A DNA stretch of 53,453 bases from sequence record MT446409.1; one strand, given 5' to 3'. Shown here piece by piece: positions 1-53,453 of this stretch. Both the position numbers and the translations under genes were made by a program. Each line of letters begins with the position of its first letter. Position 1 is the first letter of the stretch. The notes below the pieces were generated by a model, which ran no database searches, had not been told where the DNA came from, and saw only the letters and a list, made by a program, of their open reading frames with translations. This DNA is from Escherichia virus TH37.

Positions 1-543
1 AGATATTGAGTACCAGAATATTGAGCATCTAAGCAAAAGCCTAAACGAGTATCGCATTCACCCGTTGTCTCAACCTTTAACCAATCCAAAGCCAGACGAA
101 CATAAGTGAATGGCGTAGAAGGACGTTCAGCTTTAGGCATGTTCATCATGCGAGCAAGTGAACCAGCTGGATTCTGAGCAACATAAGTTAAACGCTTAGC
201 AGAAGTCCAGTCTCCACCGGAAATATCTTCCAGCTCTGCCATAAACATGTTGTATGCAATGGTAGTAGAACCATCTTCGTTAAACTTCTTAACGATGTTC
301 TCAACATTGTGAGAATACAAGCAACGAGCAAAGTCAGATGATTGTGGGTTAGGACCAGCACATGCTACATGGTACAGACGACCACGGTTATCAGCAAAGT
401 AGTCAGAGAACAGAGTGTCCTGACCAACCATTGCTACAGCATTGTTCCAAACATGGAGTTCAGTCTGGATTGCTTCTGGCATCTGCAAGCCACCATAAGT
501 ACGTTGTTCAATCATAGACTGGATGATGCGAACCATCTCAGTC
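1..543. repeat. Direct repeat of window end 52911-53453 (wrap-around of circular or terminally redundant genome)
   Basis: Positions 115-543 identical to 53025-53453; positions 1-114 differ at about 11 sites from 52911-53024. Confidence 0.9.
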
Positions 544-1295: not shown

Positions 1296-1824
1296 GTGAG
1301 ACTAGCTCATTACAACAGCGTGCTCTGATTGCCCTTGACCTTGACCCACTACCTAACTTGGTGTTGTTTGAAAGCCGATAGGCTGTAGAAAAAGTTGGGG
1401 TAGGGACCGTATTTAAGTCCGATAGGACGTTGGGCTTCCCCTCCCCGCCACCTCAAAAATAAAAAATAATATTAGGCGAACAAAGTGAGCAATTGCCACA
1501 ATTCTAGTCTCATTAATATTGTAGCAATTCGAGTCTCATTAATTCCGTAACAATATTTAAATTAAAAAAAAATTATATAAAAATTTTTATAACATAGTCG
1601 GACTTCTGTTCGAACAAATTCCGGCTAGATACAGCTGACCGACCATTTACCATTTGGTTTTGAACTTTACGCATTCCTAATATTACTCTAATATTGTAGC
1701 AATATTGGGAATAAGTAATATTGAAAACTTACTTATTTTATTCTAGCTCAAAGAGAAACGACGCTAACGCATCGAATCTCTTCTCACATATTAACTGACA
1801 AACGTCAGCCTTCACCATATCCAA

Positions 1825-2943
1825 TCATAATTCAAATCCACCCAGAGCATTGGTATCAACTTCGGAGTCAATTTGCCCAACCAGGTAGGAACTAATCTCC
1901 GTTTCCTGTGGAGCAACTTGTACAGCATCCGAATTCAACCATGCGTTAATCCATGGAATAGGATTCGTAGCACCTTTGAATGGGGCATCCAATCCAACTG
2001 CTTGCATACGAATATTCGTGATATATTCGACATATCCGCACAGAATTTGCTTGTTTAAGCCAATCATGGAGCCATCTTTGAACAGATAATCGGCCCAATC
2101 TTTCTCTTGTTGGGCAGCATCTTCGAACAATTTCTGGCATTCTTCGCGGCATTCTTGGGCAATTTCACCCATTTCTGGGTCATCTTTGCCACTCACCAGG
2201 ATATTCAACATGTGCTGAGTTCCAGTCAAATGGAGTGCTTCATCTCGTGCAATCAGTCGAATAATCTTGGCATTTCCTTCCATTAACTTGCGTTCAGCGA
2301 AGGCAAATGAGCAAGCAAAGCTAACATAGAAGCGAATTGCTTCAAGTGCGTTGATAGACATGAGGCATAAATAGAGCTTCTTCTTCAACTCACGAAGACT
2401 GATTTCATGACCAGCATGGTTCCCTTCTCCGAACAACTGCCATAATGCGGTTAGTTCTTGAAGCTCGTCATAATATTGGGAGATGCCAATTGCTCGTGCT
2501 TTGATATGCTCGTTAGTTACGATTTCATCAAAGATAATGCTTGGGTCTGTAACAATATTACGAATGATGTGGGTGTAAGAACGTGAATGGATAGTCTCGG
2601 AGAAAGACCAAGTTTCAATCCAAGTTTCAAGCTCAGGAATGCTCACAATTGGAAGCAAAACTGTGTTCGGTCCACGTCCTTGAATTGAGTCCAGAAGGAT
2701 TTGATATCGCAAATTACTGGTGAAAATGTGCTGTTCGTTTGCTGGAAGCTTCTGGTAATCAATACGGTCTTGTGAAACATCTACCTCTTCCGGTCTCCAG
2801 AAGAACGACAATTGTTTCTCAATCAACTTCTCAAATATGCCATACTTCTGCTGGTCATAGCGAGCAACGTTGACGTTCTGACCAAAGAACATTGGTTCTA
2901 ATAATTGGTTATTCTTGGTTTGTGAAAAGGTAGTGTAAGACAT
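1825..2943 (-). CDS. nrdB: Ribonucleotide reductase class Ia beta subunit (NrdB)
   Basis: 372 aa collinear with and near-identical to E. coli NrdB as recalled ([14 protein letters not shown]..., ...[21 protein letters not shown]). Confidence 0.95.
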
Positions 2944-2945
2944 TA

Positions 2946-3506
2946 TTATTTATTTCCTAAATACTTATAAAATTTATGTCCGCCATAAGTTCCTCTTCCA
3001 ACAACTCTTTTGAAATTACATTTCTCTGTAGCTGTGCAGAAGTGGGTGGCATCGGTTACATCCGGAGCATCCAACAATGCGAAGTTAATTGCTACATTCA
3101 TGGTGTCCCAAACCTGTTTTGATTCAGTCTTCCAATTTGTTTTAACTATGTTCTTCCATTGAGCATTCTTCTTCTTTGCTTCTCTTGTCCAAGCAAACTG
3201 GTTGCGTTGATAAACTACATCGCAAACGGTGTTAGCGAATGGCTTCCCGAATTTGATTCGATTACGGACGACATTAGCTACCAGAATCTTTCCATGTTTG
3301 CTTTCTCCACGAGCTTCAAACCAAATTACTTTGGCATAGCATTCTATATCTTTGCGTTGAGAAATAGATAGTTTCGGATTTCCATTTAAATAAGATTGAC
3401 TTGCAAATTCTGTAATAGTGGCGTTCACTGCCCCAGCCGAAGCTGGGACATTTGCGTGAAACAGACTCACCAACAGAAATGCAAGAACTTGTGCTGAGGG
3501 CATCAT
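2946..3506 (-). CDS. Endolysin, SleB/Hydrolase_2-type cell wall hydrolase with N-terminal signal or SAR sequence
   Basis: N-terminal hydrophobic leader [26 protein letters not shown]; WFEARGE and [13 protein letters not shown] motifs; adjacent to holin-like gene. Confidence 0.6.
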
Positions 3507-3521
3507 AGTTCCTTGTTTGCA

Positions 3522-3863
3522 TTATTTGGCCTTCTTAAACCAATTGAGTGGGTTGAGTTGTTTGATTGCAGCAGTGAAGCAATCTCGAATTGTGGTAATG
3601 ATTAGGTTAGCCCCAATCAAACCAATCACCATTGCGGCGATTGTGGCATAGCGCGGTTCATCTTTGAATATGTCCACGAAGCCTGGGAGGGAGAAAACGA
3701 ACGTACCAATGACCACACAAAGGAGGGCATCAAGAATAGCTTTCAGCAAGCCTTCCTTTTCATATGCCCCACGAATAAGTGCAGTCAATCCAGCCAGGAG
3801 TCCATGAAGAACTCCATACTGGTGCATTGCTTCCCAAACCATCTGGAAAGTTTGTCTATCCAT
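3522..3863 (-). CDS. Holin-like membrane protein (3 predicted TM segments, charged C-terminus)
   Basis: 113 aa, three hydrophobic stretches, C-terminal NWFKKAK, directly upstream of endolysin. Confidence 0.5.
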   Translation of the reverse strand: MDRQTFQMVWEAMHQYGVLHGLLAGLTALIRGAYEKEGLLKAILDALLCVVIGTFVFSLPGFVDIFKDEPRYATIAAMVIGLIGANLIITTIRDCFTAAIKQLNPLNWFKKAK

Positions 3864-4393: not shown

Positions 4394-5726
4394 ACCATGT
4401 TCCGTTCATATATTTCTGCAATTTACGACGACCAACGTAGTCAATAAATTCATCAGAAGTTGTGTTATAGCACGATGTAATGACCCAACCAGATTCATCG
4501 CGGTAGCCAGGGCCACGCCATGCAGCAGTTTCTTGGTAGGATGCTAAACGAATGTCACTCATGAAATAGGCATTGACCCAATTCTCTCGTGCAAATCGGA
4601 AAGGACCGCCATTACCAGTGTAGTCGATGTTACCATCAAGGCCGAACATCCAGTTATGCACTGCTCCGTCATCGCTTCGGCGTGAAATTACAGGACTTGA
4701 GAAGTCCGATGTTCTGGTGTATGCACCAAAGGAAATCCAAGAGCCGTACCCGTAACCAGTTGTGATTGTGTTCAGTGTTACGATTGGGACCCATGAGTCT
4801 GGTGCAACATTACAACTGTATACACCATAAGGGACGTTGCCATCTGCCTCCTGACCCCAACCACGACCCCAAGTTATGCCGCGATACTGCCCAAGCAAAT
4901 CAAGCTTAAAGTCCCGACCAGTGCCAAGTAACTTAAGTTGGTTGTGCCCTTCTGCGATAAGACGTGCAGTAAAATCCAAACCAGAGTTTGCATAGTGGAA
5001 GTCAATATATGGAAGGTTATTGTACAACTCTATTGCACCAACTTCTGTGATTCGGTCACGCTGATTAACTCGTGCAAGCTCTCTCCAGTTGGCCCAATTC
5101 TGCGAGGCATCTAGTGTACGACTTCGAACCCAAACGTTTCCGTAAATTGATGTATAACGTTGCTGAACATTGTATGCAGTTGGAAGAACTTCCAAAGTAC
5201 CAGCCGCTGCCGCAGGGTATCCACCAGCAGAGCCAGCAACAGTATCAGACTCTTGATAGTAGATACCAACATCTGATGCACTTGTAAGCGCATTAATGTT
5301 CATGGTTCCGGCATTCTTGCAAGTCATTACAGCATGTGCTATATACGACCTGCCACCAGATGGACCTTGCGAGTAGTACATAATCGGAGGTCGTGCTGCA
5401 TCACCATGCGATACTAGGATTGTCGCTTTGCTGATATCAGACACGCCAAGAACAGTAATGATTACATACGCACCGCTTATAGAAGATAAGTCCCACCTCT
5501 GTAACTCTGGGGGAATGTTGACAGCAGAACTCATTTCAACATACAGAACCTCACCGTTTACAAAAGTGTAGGTATTGAAGTTGAAGTTTCTTACAAATGC
5601 TGTGGTTGGAATCTGGGCATTCTTTTGTCCAACAGTGATTACCTCACCACGAGCAGTACCTGCATTTAAGAATGCAGCAGACTTTAAGGCGGCAACTAAG
5701 CCGCCAAATGACCAACCTTTAGCCAT
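4374..5726 (-). CDS. Tail fiber protein (distal/receptor-binding part)
   Basis: 450 aa, Gly/Tyr/Ser-rich, last of three consecutive fiber-like genes. Confidence 0.5.
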   Translation of the reverse strand: MAKGWSFGGLVAALKSAAFLNAGTARGEVITVGQKNAQIPTTAFVRNFNFNTYTFVNGEVLYVEMSSAVNIPPELQRWDLSSISGAYVIITVLGVSDISKATILVSHGDAARPPIMYYSQGPSGGRSYIAHAVMTCKNAGTMNINALTSASDVGIYYQESDTVAGSAGGYPAAAAGTLEVLPTAYNVQQRYTSIYGNVWVRSRTLDASQNWANWRELARVNQRDRITEVGAIELYNNLPYIDFHYANSGLDFTARLIAEGHNQLKLLGTGRDFKLDLLGQYRGITWGRGWGQEADGNVPYGVYSCNVAPDSWVPIVTLNTITTGYGYGSWISFGAYTRTSDFSSPVISRRSDDGAVHNWMFGLDGNIDYTGNGGPFRFARENWVNAYFMSDIRLASYQETAAWRGPGYRDESGWVITSCYNTTSDEFIDYVGRRKLQKYMNGTWYDSYSV

Positions 5727-5735
5727 TACATTACC

Positions 5736-7127
5736 TTATAAAGTGGATATTTGGTTTGGTGTCATCTTGAAATCCCAAACTCGGAAGTTACGAACCGCAT
5801 AGTTTCTTGATGATGGGCGATAGTGAATCTGTGGGTATCTGCCAACACATGCAGCAGCAGCATTCTGAGAAGTATCAGAAGCTACACGAACACCATCAAC
5901 ATAAATCTCAAGACCAGCGGTTGTGCTGAGGGTTGCAACAATGCGATACCAGCGATTCACCTGCCCAGGAAGGGTGTAGTAAATCCAGTCAGAACCAGCA
6001 GCAGAGCTTCGGCTAACTTGGAGTTGTCCATTGTTCTTCAAAAGTAAGTCTATGTTCTCGCCACTAACACCATTAAGCGAGAAGTAGATGCCAACACTGC
6101 CGTCGCTATCTGGTGCACGAGGTGTGTTAGAAAGAACATCAACACAGATTGTACAATCAGTAAATCCGTACCCAGCACCCTCGTACAGCACCTCCAAAAA
6201 GTCCGGGCCAGCAATTCGGTACAAAGCTCCACCATAAGCATTATTAAAATGCAAATCGTCAGAAGCATTAATTGCACCCTTTCCATAGTAGATGTTGAAG
6301 TCACCAATCAAATGCTGGCAGAAGTTTGGTTCTGGTACAGCATACTTTGGTTCTTCACGAGCCTTAACTTCTGCAAATGTTGCATCAGTAATGATTCGAG
6401 AGTTGGTGTTTGTTGAAGCCTTTCCAACAACTGGAACACCACTGGCATCCAGACCAATACGTGTATCACCAGACTGCATATAGAGGCCAGCAGGACCGAA
6501 TGACAACTTTGTGGTTCCACTTGCATCAAACAACATACCTTGCTGGAATGTAACAGGTCCGGTATAAGTGCCGCCAATGATAGGCACAGCACCTGCCTGA
6601 GCAGCAGTTACTTGATGGGGATTGTTTCGGTCGTTGGCATGACTTGCAACAAGAGCATTATATTGAGCAATCAACGAATCAATTTGTGCTTTGTTGTATG
6701 CACCAATCATGTTGGCTGTTAGTCTGTGTGGGTTAGAAGTAACATCTGCAATGTGTGCAGAAATCTTACTAACAATATCGTCGTAGTCATAACGAGATAC
6801 TTGAATCGCACTTGCAGCCCACTGCCCTAAGTTCTGGCTAGGGCGCAGAGTACGACTAGGAGAACCAACAGTTGCAACATAAACAGTTCGAGTTGCATCA
6901 TCCCACACAAGGGAACCAAGTCCGTACTGAACATCAGTTCCCCATTCGAAGACACCACGTTCAGCTAATGCCAGAAGAGTAGTGTCAACCTTATACTGCA
7001 AATAGTTAAGAACCTGGAAGGTTGGGATTTCTGCAATCCACCCTTGAAGATATTTAGCATCTCCTGGGTCACGCCGTAAGTTGGCGTTGTTCGAAGTCCA
7101 GACTCTATTAAGTTTTGGTCTTAACAT
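5736..7127 (-). CDS. Tail fiber protein
   Basis: 463 aa; NPHR/NPHQ and GGTYTGPVTF motifs typical of phage tail fibers. Confidence 0.6.
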   Translation of the reverse strand: MLRPKLNRVWTSNNANLRRDPGDAKYLQGWIAEIPTFQVLNYLQYKVDTTLLALAERGVFEWGTDVQYGLGSLVWDDATRTVYVATVGSPSRTLRPSQNLGQWAASAIQVSRYDYDDIVSKISAHIADVTSNPHRLTANMIGAYNKAQIDSLIAQYNALVASHANDRNNPHQVTAAQAGAVPIIGGTYTGPVTFQQGMLFDASGTTKLSFGPAGLYMQSGDTRIGLDASGVPVVGKASTNTNSRIITDATFAEVKAREEPKYAVPEPNFCQHLIGDFNIYYGKGAINASDDLHFNNAYGGALYRIAGPDFLEVLYEGAGYGFTDCTICVDVLSNTPRAPDSDGSVGIYFSLNGVSGENIDLLLKNNGQLQVSRSSAAGSDWIYYTLPGQVNRWYRIVATLSTTAGLEIYVDGVRVASDTSQNAAAACVGRYPQIHYRPSSRNYAVRNFRVWDFKMTPNQISTL

Positions 7128-44254: not shown

Positions 44255-44764
44255 CTAGATTTTGTTTATGTATGCAAACTCGCCATGATACCTGAGTGCA
44301 GCAGCATTGTACGCCCTTGCCGCATCTTCTGGAGTATTGAAAGTGCCAAGGCATCTTCTTACACCATTCTCGGATATTCTGGCAACGTACTTGCCTCTAC
44401 TGCTTTTGTGGACACCTTTGTATCCAGAGGTGTTGGAGGTCGACACTCCTACGTTCATCAAGTTTTGTTTTGCAGACACATCACGAAGATTCTCAATTCT
44501 GTTGTTAAGGATATTCCTATCAACATGGTCTATAATCTTTGGGATATACCCATGATGTAGCCAGAATACTATCTGGTGAGCTTTCCATTTTGTACCTTCG
44601 ACAGATACTCTTAAGTACCCATCACTACACACATACCCAGCAACGTCTCCCGTACGAGCTTTTGGGCTAGTGGTTTGGGTTCGAATAAGGTTGCCCGTTT
44701 CTGGGCAATACCTTAAATATTTATCGAACCTTGGATTATTTCGGGAGTTCGAAATGAGGTGCAT
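44255..44764 (-). CDS. HNH-AP2 homing endonuclease
   Basis: 169 aa; HNH_3-like GYLRV...HQIVFWLHHG...IDHVDRN and AP2-like GYKGVHK...GKYVARI...GTFNTPEDAARAYN. Confidence 0.65.
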   Translation of the reverse strand: MHLISNSRNNPRFDKYLRYCPETGNLIRTQTTSPKARTGDVAGYVCSDGYLRVSVEGTKWKAHQIVFWLHHGYIPKIIDHVDRNILNNRIENLRDVSAKQNLMNVGVSTSNTSGYKGVHKSSRGKYVARISENGVRRCLGTFNTPEDAARAYNAAALRYHGEFAYINKI

Positions 44765-50489: not shown

Positions 50490-50750
50490 TTAGAATCCCT
50501 CATTATATCCAGCAGTGTTACGAAGAGTCACTTCAACATCTTCGTCATCAGGAATTAATTCGACTTCAATATTGACAACAATATTGTCACTAAAAGTACA
50601 TGCTTTACTTGAATCAAAGAACTTTACAGCATTATATTTATCTGATTCATCTACTTTAATCCACTTCACAGAACGAACAGTGAAGATTTGACCATCTTGT
50701 AGGTCTTTGAAACAAGCAGCTTTAATCACAGTATCCATTTTATTCTCCAA
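50490..50750 (-). CDS. Hypothetical acidic protein (first gene of early array)
   Basis: 86 aa. Confidence 0.35.
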   Translation of the reverse strand: MENKMDTVIKAACFKDLQDGQIFTVRSVKWIKVDESDKYNAVKFFDSSKACTFSDNIVVNIEVELIPDDEDVEVTLRNTAGYNEGF

Positions 50751-50761
50751 AGTTAAAAGAA

Positions 50762-50827
50762 AACTCCCTACAGAACGGTTGTGGAGGTCTTGTATTACCT
50801 TAATCCACCTTAAAGTTGTAGGGAGTT
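50762..50827. repeat. Perfect 11-bp inverted repeat flanking a 44-nt spacer
   Basis: AACTCCCTACA at 50762-50772 and TGTAGGGAGTT at 50817-50827. Confidence 0.6.
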
Positions 50828-51029
50828 ATATAGTATTCCTGTGTGTGCCGCCATCATGGACTTCCTAGTCTGGTGGGCGCGTTGCAATCCAGCAATAAAC
50901 CACACGTTTTTCACAGGCTATATATGTGACACATAAAGTGCCGAAAACTACAATGATTAGCTTGGAGACATAATCTCTCTAAAATCTGTCACAGAATTTC
51001 AGCAGAATTTACAGAGATTTGGTCTTATT

Positions 51030-51045
51030 CACATGCAACTAATGA
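51030..51045 (-). promoter_or_regulatory. Conserved phage promoter-like motif, copy 7
   Basis: Plus TCACATGCAACTAATG. Confidence 0.5.
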
Positions 51046-51229
51046 TAAATGGACATGCTTAATTGCAACCAATTCATCTGCCAAATAGACGAATTTAGTC
51101 ACAATCAAACATGCTCATTAATTACAGGTTTGCTCCTATCTTGGAATGTATTTGGCACATCAAGAAGTGGCGCAATAGGTACGGAAAACCGACCATGTAC
51201 AGCATAATAAAACTAATTAAATAAAGGGT

Positions 51230-51950
51230 TTTATCCCAATATTGTCACAATATTTACATGCGATGATAAAGCCTTCGCTTGGCTGGAAGCCAGTATTCAT
51301 GCGGGTTGCAAGAATATTGGGTGAATATTGATACATTTATTACATGCGAAATTGGCACAAATACTGTTACAAAATTAACATGCCAGATTGGTAGACGATT
51401 GTATCTTCGAGGTGATTAGTCCTCTAACAATTCTGCCACATTCTAACATGCCAATTTGTAGCAATATTTACATGCCATACTGTAGCAATATTGCCACAAT
51501 ATTTGTTGCTCAAAATCGGGGCGGCTTCTGCGTGAAAACGAGAGGCTTTGCTCCGACTCTTCTCTTCTTTCGAATTCTGATTGAAAGAAAGAAGCATGTC
51601 CAAAAGTTCCAATATTACAAAAGTTATCTCCCGGCTTGTGGGTGGGCCTTTATAATAGGAGATGAAGCAATATTGTCGCAATTGAACATGCTTTAGTTGA
51701 AGAACAGTTTCGAATGATAATCCTACTTCACACATGGTTGCTGGAACTTTGTCCGGCCAAAGACAGGGAGTTCAATGATTGCCACATCATTACAACGCTG
51801 TGTGTTTAGTTGACATGCTGAAATGTTTCTAGAATGATTTCAACATGACATGCGGAAGACTTCTCCGTATTCTGTTACTTCACATCCAACTAATGTCGAA
51901 TATTGAAACAATATTACATGCAGCAATATTGCTTGAATATTGGGAATTAA
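51230..51950. repeat. Dense array of short repeats (palindromic CAATATTG / GCAATATTGC and TTACATGC units) in non-coding region
   Basis: About 12 ACATGC copies and at least 10 AATATTG copies within ~900 bp. Confidence 0.6.
51881..51896 (-). promoter_or_regulatory. Conserved phage promoter-like motif, copy 8
   Basis: Plus TCACATCCAACTAATG (consensus copy). Confidence 0.5.
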
Positions 51951-52012
51951 AGGATTTAATTAATAAAGAATAAAGAAAGGGCCATCACCTTTCGATGACA
52001 GCCCTGTTTCTC

Positions 52013-53453
52013 TTATTGACAGAAGTAGTAAGCGTGTTCGCTCATCAGAAGCTCTTCAGTAACAATGTTCTCATGGTACATGTTGATGCCACCAAGTTGC
52101 TTAGACAGAGATTCAAACTGATTATTGTGAACAAAGATTTCAACATAAGCAGAACGAATTACTTCCATCATTTTAGGAGCATCAGCTAAGCAGCAACGGA
52201 AACAATCGTGAATTGAAGTAAAGCCACGAAGACCAGCTTCTTTAGCTTTGACTGCAACAGTACGAGCAACCAATGCGTCAATACCTTGAATGTAGTTAAC
52301 AACGAAGGTACGCTTGAATTCTTCTTTAGTTGGGTTGGACTCACGAATGGTCCAAGGCTTATTCTCCTGAATCTGACCAAAGATAACACGAGTTTGAGAG
52401 TCAACACGAATGCTGAATGCCTCACAGATTTCACGAGATGGGAAGCAAGGCTTCATTACAACCTGACCATCAGTGTGACGATATGTGATGTACTCTTTAC
52501 CAAGTTCAACACAACGATTGTATGCAGCATCAGCAGCTTTCTCGATGAACATGTTAATCTTAGCACCCAATGCGTTATGGATTGCTTCTACACAAAGTTC
52601 AGCAAATGCTTCTGCTTTCTCAACAGGAATCTGGAGAGATGCTGTCATGTATGCAATGAAGTCAGAAGAACCAGTTAATGCAGCTTTACCACCACCATAT
52701 TGGATAGCCATGTATGGAGTTTTGATAAACTTACGACCAGCTTTCGGATTCAAGAATTCATCCATGATTTCAGCAGATGGTTTCATTGAAGAACGGTCAA
52801 GCAACTTCAACAGTTCACGAAGAGATAACTGGTATGGGTCAGATGCTTTAGTTGATGAATCAACCAGACCTGTTGCACGAGCCATCTCCATGTTACCAGC
52901 AATGAATGCCAGATATTGAGTACCAGAACATTTAGCATCTAAGCCAAAGCCTACACGAGAATCGCATTCACCTGTAGTCTCAAACTTGAACCAATCCAGA
53001 GCCAGACGAACATAAGTGAATGGCTTAGAAGGACGTTCAGCTTTAGGCATGTTCATCATGCGAGCAAGTGAACCAGCTGGATTCTGAGCAACATAAGTTA
53101 AACGCTTAGCAGAAGTCCAGTCTCCACCGGAAATATCTTCCAGCTCTGCCATAAACATGTTGTATGCAATGGTAGTAGAACCATCTTCGTTAAACTTCTT
53201 AACGATGTTCTCAACATTGTGAGAATACAAGCAACGAGCAAAGTCAGATGATTGTGGGTTAGGACCAGCACATGCTACATGGTACAGACGACCACGGTTA
53301 TCAGCAAAGTAGTCAGAGAACAGAGTGTCCTGACCAACCATTGCTACAGCATTGTTCCAAACATGGAGTTCAGTCTGGATTGCTTCTGGCATCTGCAAGC
53401 CACCATAAGTACGTTGTTCAATCATAGACTGGATGATGCGAACCATCTCAGTC
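52013..53453 (-). CDS. T7-like single-subunit RNA polymerase, C-terminal part (N-terminus beyond the window end; matches 1-1217 across the repeat)
   Basis: DNRGRLYHV, motif A-like GLDAKCSGTQYLAF, motif B-like KTPYMAIQYGGGK, motif C IHDCFRCC collinear with T7 RNAP DWRGRVYAV / DGSCSGIQHF / MTLAYGS / IHDSFGT. Confidence 0.85.
   Translation of the reverse strand, partial: TEMVRIIQSMIEQRTYGGLQMPEAIQTELHVWNNAVAMVGQDTLFSDYFADNRGRLYHVACAGPNPQSSDFARCLYSHNVENIVKKFNEDGSTTIAYNMFMAELEDISGGDWTSAKRLTYVAQNPAGSLARMMNMPKAERPSKPFTYVRLALDWFKFETTGECDSRVGFGLDAKCSGTQYLAFIAGNMEMARATGLVDSSTKASDPYQLSLRELLKLLDRSSMKPSAEIMDEFLNPKAGRKFIKTPYMAIQYGGGKAALTGSSDFIAYMTASLQIPVEKAEAFAELCVEAIHNALGAKINMFIEKAADAAYNRCVELGKEYITYRHTDGQVVMKPCFPSREICEAFSIRVDSQTRVIFGQIQENKPWTIRESNPTKEEFKRTFVVNYIQGIDALVARTVAVKAKEAGLRGFTSIHDCFRCCLADAPKMMEVIRSAYVEIFVHNNQFESLSKQLGGINMYHENIVTEELLMSEHAYYFCQ

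Follow-up and report, generated by a model that had tools for sequence, protein, structure and literature searches.

What does a phage keep in 1.25 kb of repeat-dense DNA between its RNA polymerase gene and its early genes? We asked this of Escherichia virus TH37 (sequence record MT446409.1), whose 53,453 nucleotides, taken as one strand, are called the window below. The region in question is the 1,253 bp (50760 to 52012) lying between the end of the RNA polymerase (RNAP) gene at 52013 and the start of the small-gene array at 50750, both on the minus strand, where a first-pass annotation had correctly placed it. From the density of its motifs that annotation had suggested operators, a replication origin or a decoy. 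The motifs proved to be nonrandom and to resemble an array of protein-binding sites, an inference strengthened by deep conservation across genera, in motif, orientation and position alike, but none of the three functions was confirmed. Homology with related phages points to a conserved noncoding junction at which the direct terminal repeat (DTR) would give way to the unique part of the genome. The DTR edge, partner dyads at the other edge, the composite build of the repeat units and two stem-loops supported by covariation had all been missed. We propose, tentatively and at somewhat less than even confidence, that the repeats bind a phage protein and that paired arrays mark the edges of the DTR for end formation in concatemers.

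A polar array of composite repeats

The hexamer ACATGC, of which about 12 copies had been claimed, occurs exactly 12 times in the region, always on the plus strand (starts at 51031, 51053, 51109, 51256, 51342, 51378, 51446, 51470, 51686, 51813, 51848 and 51916), and just 12 more times in the remaining ~52 kb of the window; the reverse hexamer, GCATGT, is found once. All four copies of TTACATGC in the window lie in the region, and the many palindromic units attributed to it are there as well: 13 of AATATT, 4 of CAATATTG and 2 of GCAATATTGC. As a null model we used 2,000 dinucleotide-preserving shuffles of the region itself, a comparison with shuffled sequence that the first-pass annotation had proposed as its own check, and found motif counts far above expectation. 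This held for ACATGC (12 against 0.62 ± 0.78, maximum 4), AATATT (13 against 1.18, maximum 6), CAATATTG (4 against 0.07), TG[CTG]CACA (7 against 0.41) and AATATT-N5-AATATT, that is, pairs at 11-bp spacing (5 against 0.00). Not one of the 2,000 shuffles matched the observed count of any enriched motif. GCATGT, with its single copy, stands at the shuffle expectation, and the strand bias of ACATGC is therefore real.

Rather than being independent, the hexamers belong to composite, oriented units of about 18 to 26 bp. In the best form, AATATTGTCACAATATTTACATGC, two AATATT hexamers spaced by one helical turn make up a 17-bp dyad, after which comes (T)TACATGC; degenerate units retain TG(Y)CACA and ACATGC, and a second class, (T)TGACATGC, is without the dyad. 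There are about 10 to 12 of these iterons in a single orientation, each made up of TGYCACA, 4 to 6 nt and TWACATGC, often within an AATATTG-N3-CAATATT dyad. The start-to-start spacing of the copies is irregular, ranging from 22 to 216 bp.

Delimited from repeat families D1 to D4 and an anchored alignment, the main iteron cluster (51238 to 51512, plus strand) lies just outside the terminal repeat. Its units start at 51238, 51324, 51360, 51429, 51452 and 51487, with the consensus AATATTGyCACAATATTtACATGC, and contain three AATATT-N5-AATATT dyads and five ACATGC hexamers; this is also the part of the gap most conserved at the DNA level across genera. A pair of dyads at 51899 to 51941 (51899 to 51915 and 51925 to 51941, around the ACATGC at 51916) falls within the terminal repeat, where in gene sense it comes just before a promoter-like motif called P2 below, and is conserved in PM1, PP101 and partly in Y2. 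The unit AATATTGTCGCAATTGAACATGC (51669 to 51691, plus strand) is likewise within the terminal repeat. Two more ACATGC copies, at 51053 and 51109, occupy 51053 to 51114 on the plus strand, the latter in the unit AATTTAGTCACAATCAAACATGC (51092 to 51114).

Conservation across the Chaseviridae

The window comes from a myovirus of the phiEcoM-GJ1 type (Carltongylesvirus, Chaseviridae) whose RNA polymerase is T7-type; across the region and its flanks, identity to phages of the phiEcoM-GJ1 group from Escherichia and Yersinia is 90 to 96%. Every Chaseviridae genome that we examined has a noncoding gap after the polymerase gene, measuring 1.0 to 1.35 kb between annotated genes, or up to 1.8 kb from the RNAP stop where small open reading frames (ORFs) are annotated within it. 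Such small ORFs differ by strand and frame from record to record. In TH37 the region has 127 stop codons over its six frames, and its two ORFs of ~100 amino acids, on opposite strands, gave only fragmented, frame-shifting matches in other genera. We rejected a coding role; the region is a conserved noncoding control region that follows the RNA polymerase gene.

Between 9 and 14 same-strand copies of ACATGC occur in 4HA13, PM1, PP101, Y2, SSEM1 and Myduc/PA_03 (Cleopatravirinae, five genera) and in the unclassified phage phiA050. The core of the gap can be aligned at the DNA level across the Cleopatravirinae genera examined, which is unusual for noncoding phage DNA. Myduc has 13 or 14 ACATGC copies but only 2 of AATATT. 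More distant lineages carry other one-directional sense motifs: GTATGAGAC in ZPAH14, GTATGA (together with ATAATTAT palindromes) in VPs20 and GTGTGAC in Spp001. The gaps of these three phages (ZPAH14, 2617 to 3657; VPs20, 2158 to 3201; Spp001, 4890 to 6195) also hold a repeated GCTCT(T/A)CGAGCCA(C/A)AAG..CACTAG unit, which stands before a ZPAH14 early gene as well and may be a promoter of the distant Chaseviridae, and gaps of the distant Chaseviridae have in addition a GAGTCTTCGACTC / GGTGTCTTCGACAC palindrome.

The host does not predict the motif. phiA050, with an Aeromonas host, retains ACATGC, and the Aeromonas phage ZPAH14 carries another motif. The motif thus tracks phage lineage, not host, so the protein that reads it is more likely to be a sequence-specific, phage-encoded one than a host protein. 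For the same reason, a decoy for a host protein seems unlikely.

The end of the terminal repeat within the region

Chaseviridae genomes are nonpermuted, with terminal repeats of ~3 kb, according to the ICTV profile (PMC12842549). The repeats annotated with PhageTerm measure 3,234 bp in Mangalitsa, 3,120 bp in 4HA13 and 3,202 bp in Myduc, and PM1 and Y2 have repeats of 2,665 and 2,608 bp, respectively, at both ends of their records. All five right ends align at one homologous point, window position 51555 ± 5. In a sixth phage, ZPAH14, of another genus-level lineage, a 3,373-bp repeat ends within the gap after a purine-rich tract, with its own repeats flanking. DTR ends accordingly agree in six phages of six genera, all of them inside the gap. 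By homology, the inner DTR boundary, which would be the right physical end of the virion DNA, lies between 51555 and 51554 (±5 nt). The left physical end, judged from the record starts of Y2, SSEM1, PM1 and Mangalitsa, is predicted between 1420 and 1419 (sense cctatcg|GACTTAAATACGGTCCC). The repeat would then be ~2,775 bp long, taking in the polymerase gene and, from the region, its right-hand 460 bp.

Relative to this edge, about eight iterons stand outside, within 520 bp, and four inside. When we compared distances to the end in six phages, the sense GCATGT motif kept its positions across genera at about +70 to +100, +105 to +135, +172 to +204, +208 to +238, +290 to +300, +440, +500 and +520, and also at −130 to −390. 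About 200 bp around the DTR end is motif-free across genera.

A purine-rich tract (51555 to 51590, minus strand; sense ...GAAAGAAGAGAAGAGTC|GG...) leads up to the right end placed by homology. On the sense strand, the last 15 to 45 nt of the terminal repeat are rich in purines in each of the six phages whose right end is known, their sequence not being conserved; in the window, the tract forms an imperfect hairpin, CTTCTCTTCTTTC / GAAAGAAAGAAG. The inverted GCATGT at 51594 was considered as a symmetry partner around the cut site and rejected, since its conservation does not extend beyond Carltongylesvirus.

At the other edge, the putative left end and a promoter-like motif (1279 to 1294) upstream of the RNAP gene together take up 1279 to 1420 on the minus strand. 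The left-end region, 1354 to 1424, is highly conserved in the sense orientation across genera. The octamer CCTATCGG occurs twice there, at the left cut site and ~45 nt inside it (AGCCTATCGGCT), with a T-run and a G-rich block upstream; the octamer region is a candidate terminase recognition or cut signal.

Outside this edge, 100 to 300 bp away at the far end of the late genes, lies a second array (1468 to 1717, minus strand), with AATATT dyads at 1515 to 1531, 1541 to 1557 and 1679 to 1706 and the sense motif AATGAGACT(C). Pairs of AATATT at 11-bp spacing are found at two sites only in the window, the region itself and 1515 to 1717. The dyads of this partner array are paired with a different oriented sense motif, AATGAGACTC, kept in Faunus and phiA050 and replaced in PM1 by AACGGCTC. 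A GGTGTCGAAGACAC palindrome is likewise common to both flanks of the RNAP gene in Spp001.

Paired arrays as possible marks of the repeat edges

End formation is the reading that we tentatively favor because no other draws on the second array and on the constant distance to the genome end. A phage-encoded, sequence-specific protein would bind the iterons; in replicating concatemers, the bound arrays would bracket a single copy of the DTR and mark both of its edges; and terminase or nicking machinery would thereby cut at fixed positions, so that the repeat could be duplicated. The single polarity of the iterons would suit a directional process, such as DNA translocation in packaging. From promoter-like motifs P1 and P2, described below, phage polymerase that has just been made could then read out of the DTR and on into the early genes.

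The concatemer junction of T7 offers one comparison: there, a 160-bp terminal repeat is accompanied by arrays of short oriented repeats and flanked by the promoters phiOL and phiOR. In both phages, the terminal repeat is bracketed by short-repeat arrays of one orientation, phage-polymerase promoters (here the putative ones at 1279 to 1294 and 51879 to 51894) lie close to both repeat edges, and a T7-type RNA polymerase and replisome are present. The TH37 repeat differs in being ~2.8 kb long and carrying the polymerase gene, its units are 18- to 26-bp composites with dyads whereas those of T7 are 7-mers, its two arrays share the dyad part only, and the virion is that of a myovirus. Terminase recognition regions with repeated sites are a second comparison, the pac hexamers of phage P1 and the R sites of lambda cosB being examples. 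Like them, the TH37 region has short repeats on both sides of a cleavage position that homology suggests is fixed, but its arrays extend over more than 900 bp and the nearest copies are 70 to 140 bp from the cut. The phage's terminase has been reported to be T1-like (PMC8762354).

A narrower proposal is that the iterons, the two stem-loops described below and the purine tract together form cis machinery that fixes the ends of a long (2.3- to 3.4-kb) DTR, either as a polar stop or cut signal for the packaging motor or through a strand break made by synthesis primed from the P2 transcript. This we regard as unlikely. We know of no phage in which the cutting and duplication of long terminal repeats have been resolved.

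Several observations weigh against end formation. ACATGC is absent from the partner array, and the dyads alone are common to both edges. The sequence at the right-end cut site is poorly conserved, and the arrays do not strictly bracket the DTR, 4 to 6 motif copies lying inside it. The DTR position in this window is itself suggested by homology, not by reads. A Pfam search found no DNA-binding domain among 20 early ORFs, the same anatomy would fit a replication origin about equally well, and to our knowledge the function of the analogous T7 repeat arrays has not been established.

The Yersinia phage PYps23T, a close relative, adds a direct conflict. This phage is 91% identical to the window here, and its repeat was put at 2,339 bp by ligation-PCR and direct sequencing (PMC8762354). 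In its record, both repeat boundaries fall inside promoter motifs, ATTAGTTGGA|TGTGAA and ATTAGTTGGA|CGTGAA, at 2339/2340 (L004) and 1031/1032 (L005), which correspond to window positions 51884/51885 (right) and 1287/1288. In six other family members, the end of the repeat lies ~330 bp beyond this and its start ~130 bp earlier. The PYps23T ends as compared here thus disagree with six other determinations, which also counts against our reading. They could reflect strand-specific nicks at the motif, recombination or template switching (in PCR) between identical 11-nt stretches, or a genuine difference.

The position of the gap at the DTR edge also recalls T5, whose Repeat Region 3 comprises ~1.2 kb of untranslated repeats and palindromes, lies mostly in the left terminal repeat, overruns it by 270 bp and is conserved above the neighboring ORFs (bioRxiv 10.1101/866236). 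Both phages have an untranslated region of more than 1 kb, dense in repeats and palindromes, that lies across the inner end of a long terminal repeat, and in both the order of elements is conserved among relatives more than nearby ORFs are. The region might by analogy be an injection stop signal: the polymerase-bearing repeat would enter first, entry would pause at the region, and the rest would follow once polymerase had been made, for instance through transcription from P2 and P1, as in T7. Besides the close architectural parallel, the gap straddles the DTR edge and is conserved at the DNA level across genera, and the DTR carries the one gene that would be needed first. We nevertheless consider an injection stop improbable. 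The T5 repeat is 10 kb long with many pre-early genes, and TH37 has other motifs and none of the paired DnaA boxes, whose clustering is the feature proposed to act in T5. We saw no A1/A2-like genes, though none were looked for; the partner array at the far end would go unexplained; and this myovirus is not known to inject its DNA in two steps.

Promoter-like motifs and the case for an origin

Two promoter-motif copies had been claimed for the region, and both are there, at 51028 to 51043 and 51879 to 51894, with zero mismatches to TTCACATNCAACTAAT. With up to 3 mismatches allowed, the sense 16-mer ATTAGTTGNATGTGAA matches 12 sites in the window, all oriented with the genes, against 3.2 expected on both strands. 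About 10 of these copies look genuine; most of those checked against the ORF map are intergenic, and one is upstream of the polymerase gene. P2 (sense ATTAGTTGGATGTGAA; 51879 to 51894, minus strand) is putative phage promoter 1 of phiEcoM-GJ1; after it come a conserved initially transcribed sequence and a small potential stem-loop at the 5′ end (about 51852 to 51868). The P2 motif is conserved in 4HA13, PM1, PP101 and Y2. P1 (sense ATTAGTTGCATGTGAA; 51028 to 51043, minus strand), putative phage promoter 2 of the same phage, is followed by a 23-nt imperfect inverted repeat (50966 to 51025), a potential 5′ hairpin on the transcript. Both 16-mers are annotated as putative phage promoters in phiEcoM-GJ1 and SA91KD and are conserved in other genera, and both point toward the early genes; AT-rich dips in the region go down to 25% GC. 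Given the ~10 mostly intergenic copies in one orientation, the annotation in phiEcoM-GJ1 and SA91KD and the conservation, we accept the 16-mers as the best promoter candidates, still putative; Chaseviridae promoters have not been identified according to the ICTV profile (PMC12842549).

We considered whether the iterons might be extra phage promoters and rejected the idea. Only G(C/G)ATGT is common to them and the 16-mer, the conserved part of the units lies downstream of the hexamer (in the sense orientation), not upstream, and the Myduc promoter motif has GAGTGTGAA while the repeats stay GCATGTAA. Matches to paired sigma-70 consensus elements were weakly enriched (12 against 6.7 ± 2.3 in shuffles); none stood consistently at the repeat units, and none kept its spacing in other genera.

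Two promoter motifs behind a polymerase gene bring to mind the primary origin of T7, which lies directly after gene 1, the polymerase gene, behind the phage promoters phi1.1A and phi1.1B. The TH37 region likewise directly follows its RNA polymerase gene, starting at the RNAP stop codon at 52013, and has two putative phage promoters and a T7-like replisome with no initiator found. The replisome genes were recognized by Pfam as a primase-helicase (Toprim and DnaB_C/AAA_25), a family A DNA polymerase (DNA_pol_A) and a 5′-3′ exonuclease (5_3_exonuc_N). At a T7-type primary origin, a P2 or P1 transcript would prime DNA synthesis, the stem-loops and the GCATGT copies on the displaced sense strand would be sites of loading and priming for a gp4-like primase-helicase, and the purine tract would stabilize the RNA-DNA hybrid. 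The one polarity of all motif copies relative to the promoters would fit such a role, a lineage-specific motif could track primase specificity, and the AT-rich dips and conserved stem-loops agree with it.

The fit to an origin is incomplete, and we think this explanation possible but on the unlikely side, if almost on a par with end formation. Iterons are not required at a T7-type origin, and the known sites of primases are trinucleotides, not conserved 18- to 26-bp dyad units; the primary origin of T7 spans ~200 bp without iterons or conserved stem-loops, compared with 1.25 kb including a genome end here. The iterons themselves were rejected as T7-type primase sites (GTC), which are not consistent between units. 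An origin would not explain why dyads recur past the late genes, at the opposite DTR edge, and the invariant G-T pairs of both stem-loops favor the plus strand, not the strand displaced by sense transcription. Compared with the iteron origins lambda ori, P1 oriR and P4 ori/crr, the region has in common several oriented repeats of ~20 bp, an adjoining AT-rich stretch and a second distant cluster (as P4 has in ori and crr). The units are direct repeats, but the regular phasing expected of iteron-type origins is missing, no initiator gene was identified, and DnaA boxes are absent as a cluster, the one site with a single mismatch being part of P1. Over the whole window, DnaA boxes numbered 21 against 16.5 expected, which is no enrichment.

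Candidate binding proteins and the case for operators

If the iterons are read by a phage protein, its gene was not apparent. Among 30 ORFs, Pfam revealed no helix-turn-helix or similar domain and no recognized initiator protein, many of the small ORFs being unannotated. The scan matched a weak, below-threshold zinc ribbon in a 60-amino-acid ORF and an HNH-AP2 homing endonuclease. The latter, an ORF at 44258 to 44764 (minus strand) with HNH_3 and AP2 domains, sits among early/middle genes and is probably a homing endonuclease. For host factors, inspection by eye (an impression only) gave no consistent match to LexA, CRP, IHF, TyrR, sigma-54 or matS sites.

The dyads raise the further question of whether the array serves transcriptional control. 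A phage repressor or activator bound to the 17-bp dyads that flank the polymerase gene and lie near P1 and P2 could time the handover from the host polymerase, which would transcribe the RNAP gene, to the phage polymerase, which would take on the early genes. The near-perfect 17-bp palindrome AATATTGNNNCAATATT, with its hexamers one helical turn apart, is typical of the sites of dimeric regulators; dyads adjoin P2 (51899 to 51941) and occupy the region upstream of the RNAP gene, where phiEcoM-GJ1 has an annotated sigma-70 promoter. Yet the early ORFs include no DNA-binding regulator recognizable by Pfam, the invariant across genera is the asymmetric ACATGC rather than the dyad, as the contrasting counts in Myduc show, and most units are hundreds of base pairs from either promoter. 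An operator array therefore seems quite unlikely.

Stem-loops and the case for an RNA product

Two structures in the region are backed by compensatory changes. SL-A (51626 to 51663), 70 to 110 bp inside the terminal-repeat end, encloses the most conserved block of all (51629 to 51660, TCCCGGCTTGTGGGTGGGCCTTTATAATAGGA), an almost invariant 32-nt core with 25 invariant columns in 10 phages. Four of its pairs have compensatory changes, and 96% of cells are paired, against 36 to 61% in slid controls. The outer stem takes at least 5 different complementary forms, and one inner pair changes from G-C to C-G in Myduc. In IMG/VR, matches to the core are confined to contigs of 52 to 57 kb, the size of Chaseviridae genomes. 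In Myducvirus (Proteus phage PA_03, 2650 to 3040, and Myduc), SL-A and one TTACATGC unit are tandemly duplicated with a period of ~208 to 218 bp; duplication of the SL-A segment is thus tolerated there.

The second structure, SL-B (51744 to 51773; GGAACTTTGTC...GACAGGGAGTTC), has three inner base pairs that covary (GTC/GAC, GAG/CTC and CAG/CTG). In an alignment of eight phages (alignment A2), 100% of its cells are paired and three pairs are compensatory, with 30 to 61% paired in slid controls. Invariant G-T pairs in SL-A and SL-B exist only on the plus strand, which hints that the plus strand is the folded one. Sliding-window consensus folding was set aside: its shuffle z-scores are meaningless, as the shuffles fold to ~0, and its strongest signal was pairing of the self-complementary CATG cores of the repeats, so only the two compensatory hairpins were retained.

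A perfect 11-bp inverted repeat had also been claimed for the region, and its arms are at 50762 to 50772 and 50817 to 50827. They form the outer stem of a long hairpin (50762 to 50827, minus strand) that has an inner stem as well (−25 kcal/mol, z = −2.9) and is followed in the sense strand by UUUUCUUUU. With the ensuing U-run, the hairpin precedes, by ~10 nt, the ribosome-binding site belonging to the first small gene; it is conserved in Carltongylesvirus and partly in 4HA13 and is absent in PM1 and Y2. It is probably an attenuator or terminator or an RNA-processing site.

Might the region, then, work as RNA? The 850 nt between P2 and P1 could be a leader or noncoding RNA whose stem-loops and GCAUGU repeats bind a protein or are processed, as T7 early RNA is at its RNase III sites. 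The region is downstream of P2, no sense terminator was called between P2 and 50827, the two stem-loops have compensatory changes, and the long hairpin with its U-run precedes the first gene. We see only a slim chance of this. In sense RNA the invariant G-T positions would become A-C mismatches, and the dyad palindromes and the partner array, outside any obvious transcript, point to recognition at the DNA level; the consensus folding of the repeat cluster, as noted, was driven by the CATG core only. A scan of the region against Rfam 15 (E ≤ 5) gave no match beyond sub-threshold microRNA and small nucleolar RNA noise (best E ≥ 0.17, far below gathering scores), and ARAGORN found no tRNA or transfer-messenger RNA in it.

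The functions considered here, end formation, origin, operator, injection stop and RNA, do not rule one another out. Near the terminal repeat of T7, promoters overlap with origins and packaging signals.

Other features of the region and its flanks

The single-subunit, T7-type RNA polymerase gene has its 3′ part at 52013 to 53453 (minus strand), as annotated in Mangalitsa, phiEcoM-GJ1 and SA91KD, and runs on at 1217 to 1 of the window across a 543-nt overlap of the window ends; its product is 92 to 97% identical to other Carltongylesvirus RNAPs (tblastn). The first 543 nt of the window (1 to 543) match the last 543 nt (52911 to 53453), part of the RNAP gene, with 11 mismatches, all of them within the first 115 nt. 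The window is a circularized assembly with a unit of 52,910 bp, and the mismatches suggest a low-quality or mixed assembly end. A terminator scan placed the intrinsic terminator of the RNAP gene at 51978 to 52005 (minus strand), a 12-bp stem followed by TTCTTTATTC; the SA91KD annotation has a rho-independent terminator at this site. All window genes are on the minus strand, and the small early-gene array begins to the left of the region.

Two further blocks are conserved. A unique block, GTATCTTCGAGGTGATTAGTCCTCTAACAATTCTGCCACATTCTAACATGCC (51402 to 51452), emerged from a conservation map with five other genera, and no convincing conserved pairing was found in it. The block TGTGACACATAAAGTGC (50925 to 50941) is identical at most positions in 3 to 5 of 5 other genera.

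Compared with phiEcoM-GJ1 and Mangalitsa, TH37 has a 92-nt insertion at 50826 to 50917, with terminal inverted repeats (TATAG..CCTGTG / CACAGG..CTATA) and a TATA duplicated at its edges. It folds stably on the plus strand (−30 kcal/mol, z −2.9). About 12 distinct Carltongylesvirus phages (17 records) have one copy each, and E. coli genomes have none. The insertion may be a small structured element or what is left of a mini mobile element; we rejected a mobile mini-element because it is single-copy and confined to some Carltongylesvirus genomes, with none in E. coli genomes.

Significance for the Chaseviridae

Promoters and terminal repeats were already known, and a repeat-dense untranslated region at a terminal-repeat junction is a kind known from T5 and T7. 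In the accessible Chaseviridae literature, which excludes the phiEcoM-GJ1 (2008) and Y2 (2011) papers, we found no description of the iteron arrays or of how their polarity and positions are conserved, and none of the partner array, the stem-loops or the placement of the repeat edge in the spacer.

In the Chaseviridae, the particle is that of a myovirus but the apparatus for transcription and replication is T7-type, and 1.25 kb of their DNA concentrates candidate cis-elements for transcription, replication and the terminal repeats. Conserved across at least eight genera, these are two promoter motifs, the genome end, polar iterons and two structured elements. These elements offer mutable targets for studying how a long repeat is generated, where a T7-like replisome starts in a phage other than T7 and which protein reads the ACATGC/AATATT code. 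There is a practical side too, as many deposited genomes of the family are opened at arbitrary points or carry spurious small ORFs here. If the narrower proposal of cis machinery that fixes the repeat ends is right, this junction, compact and conserved as it is, would lend itself as a model for how long terminal repeats are cut and duplicated.

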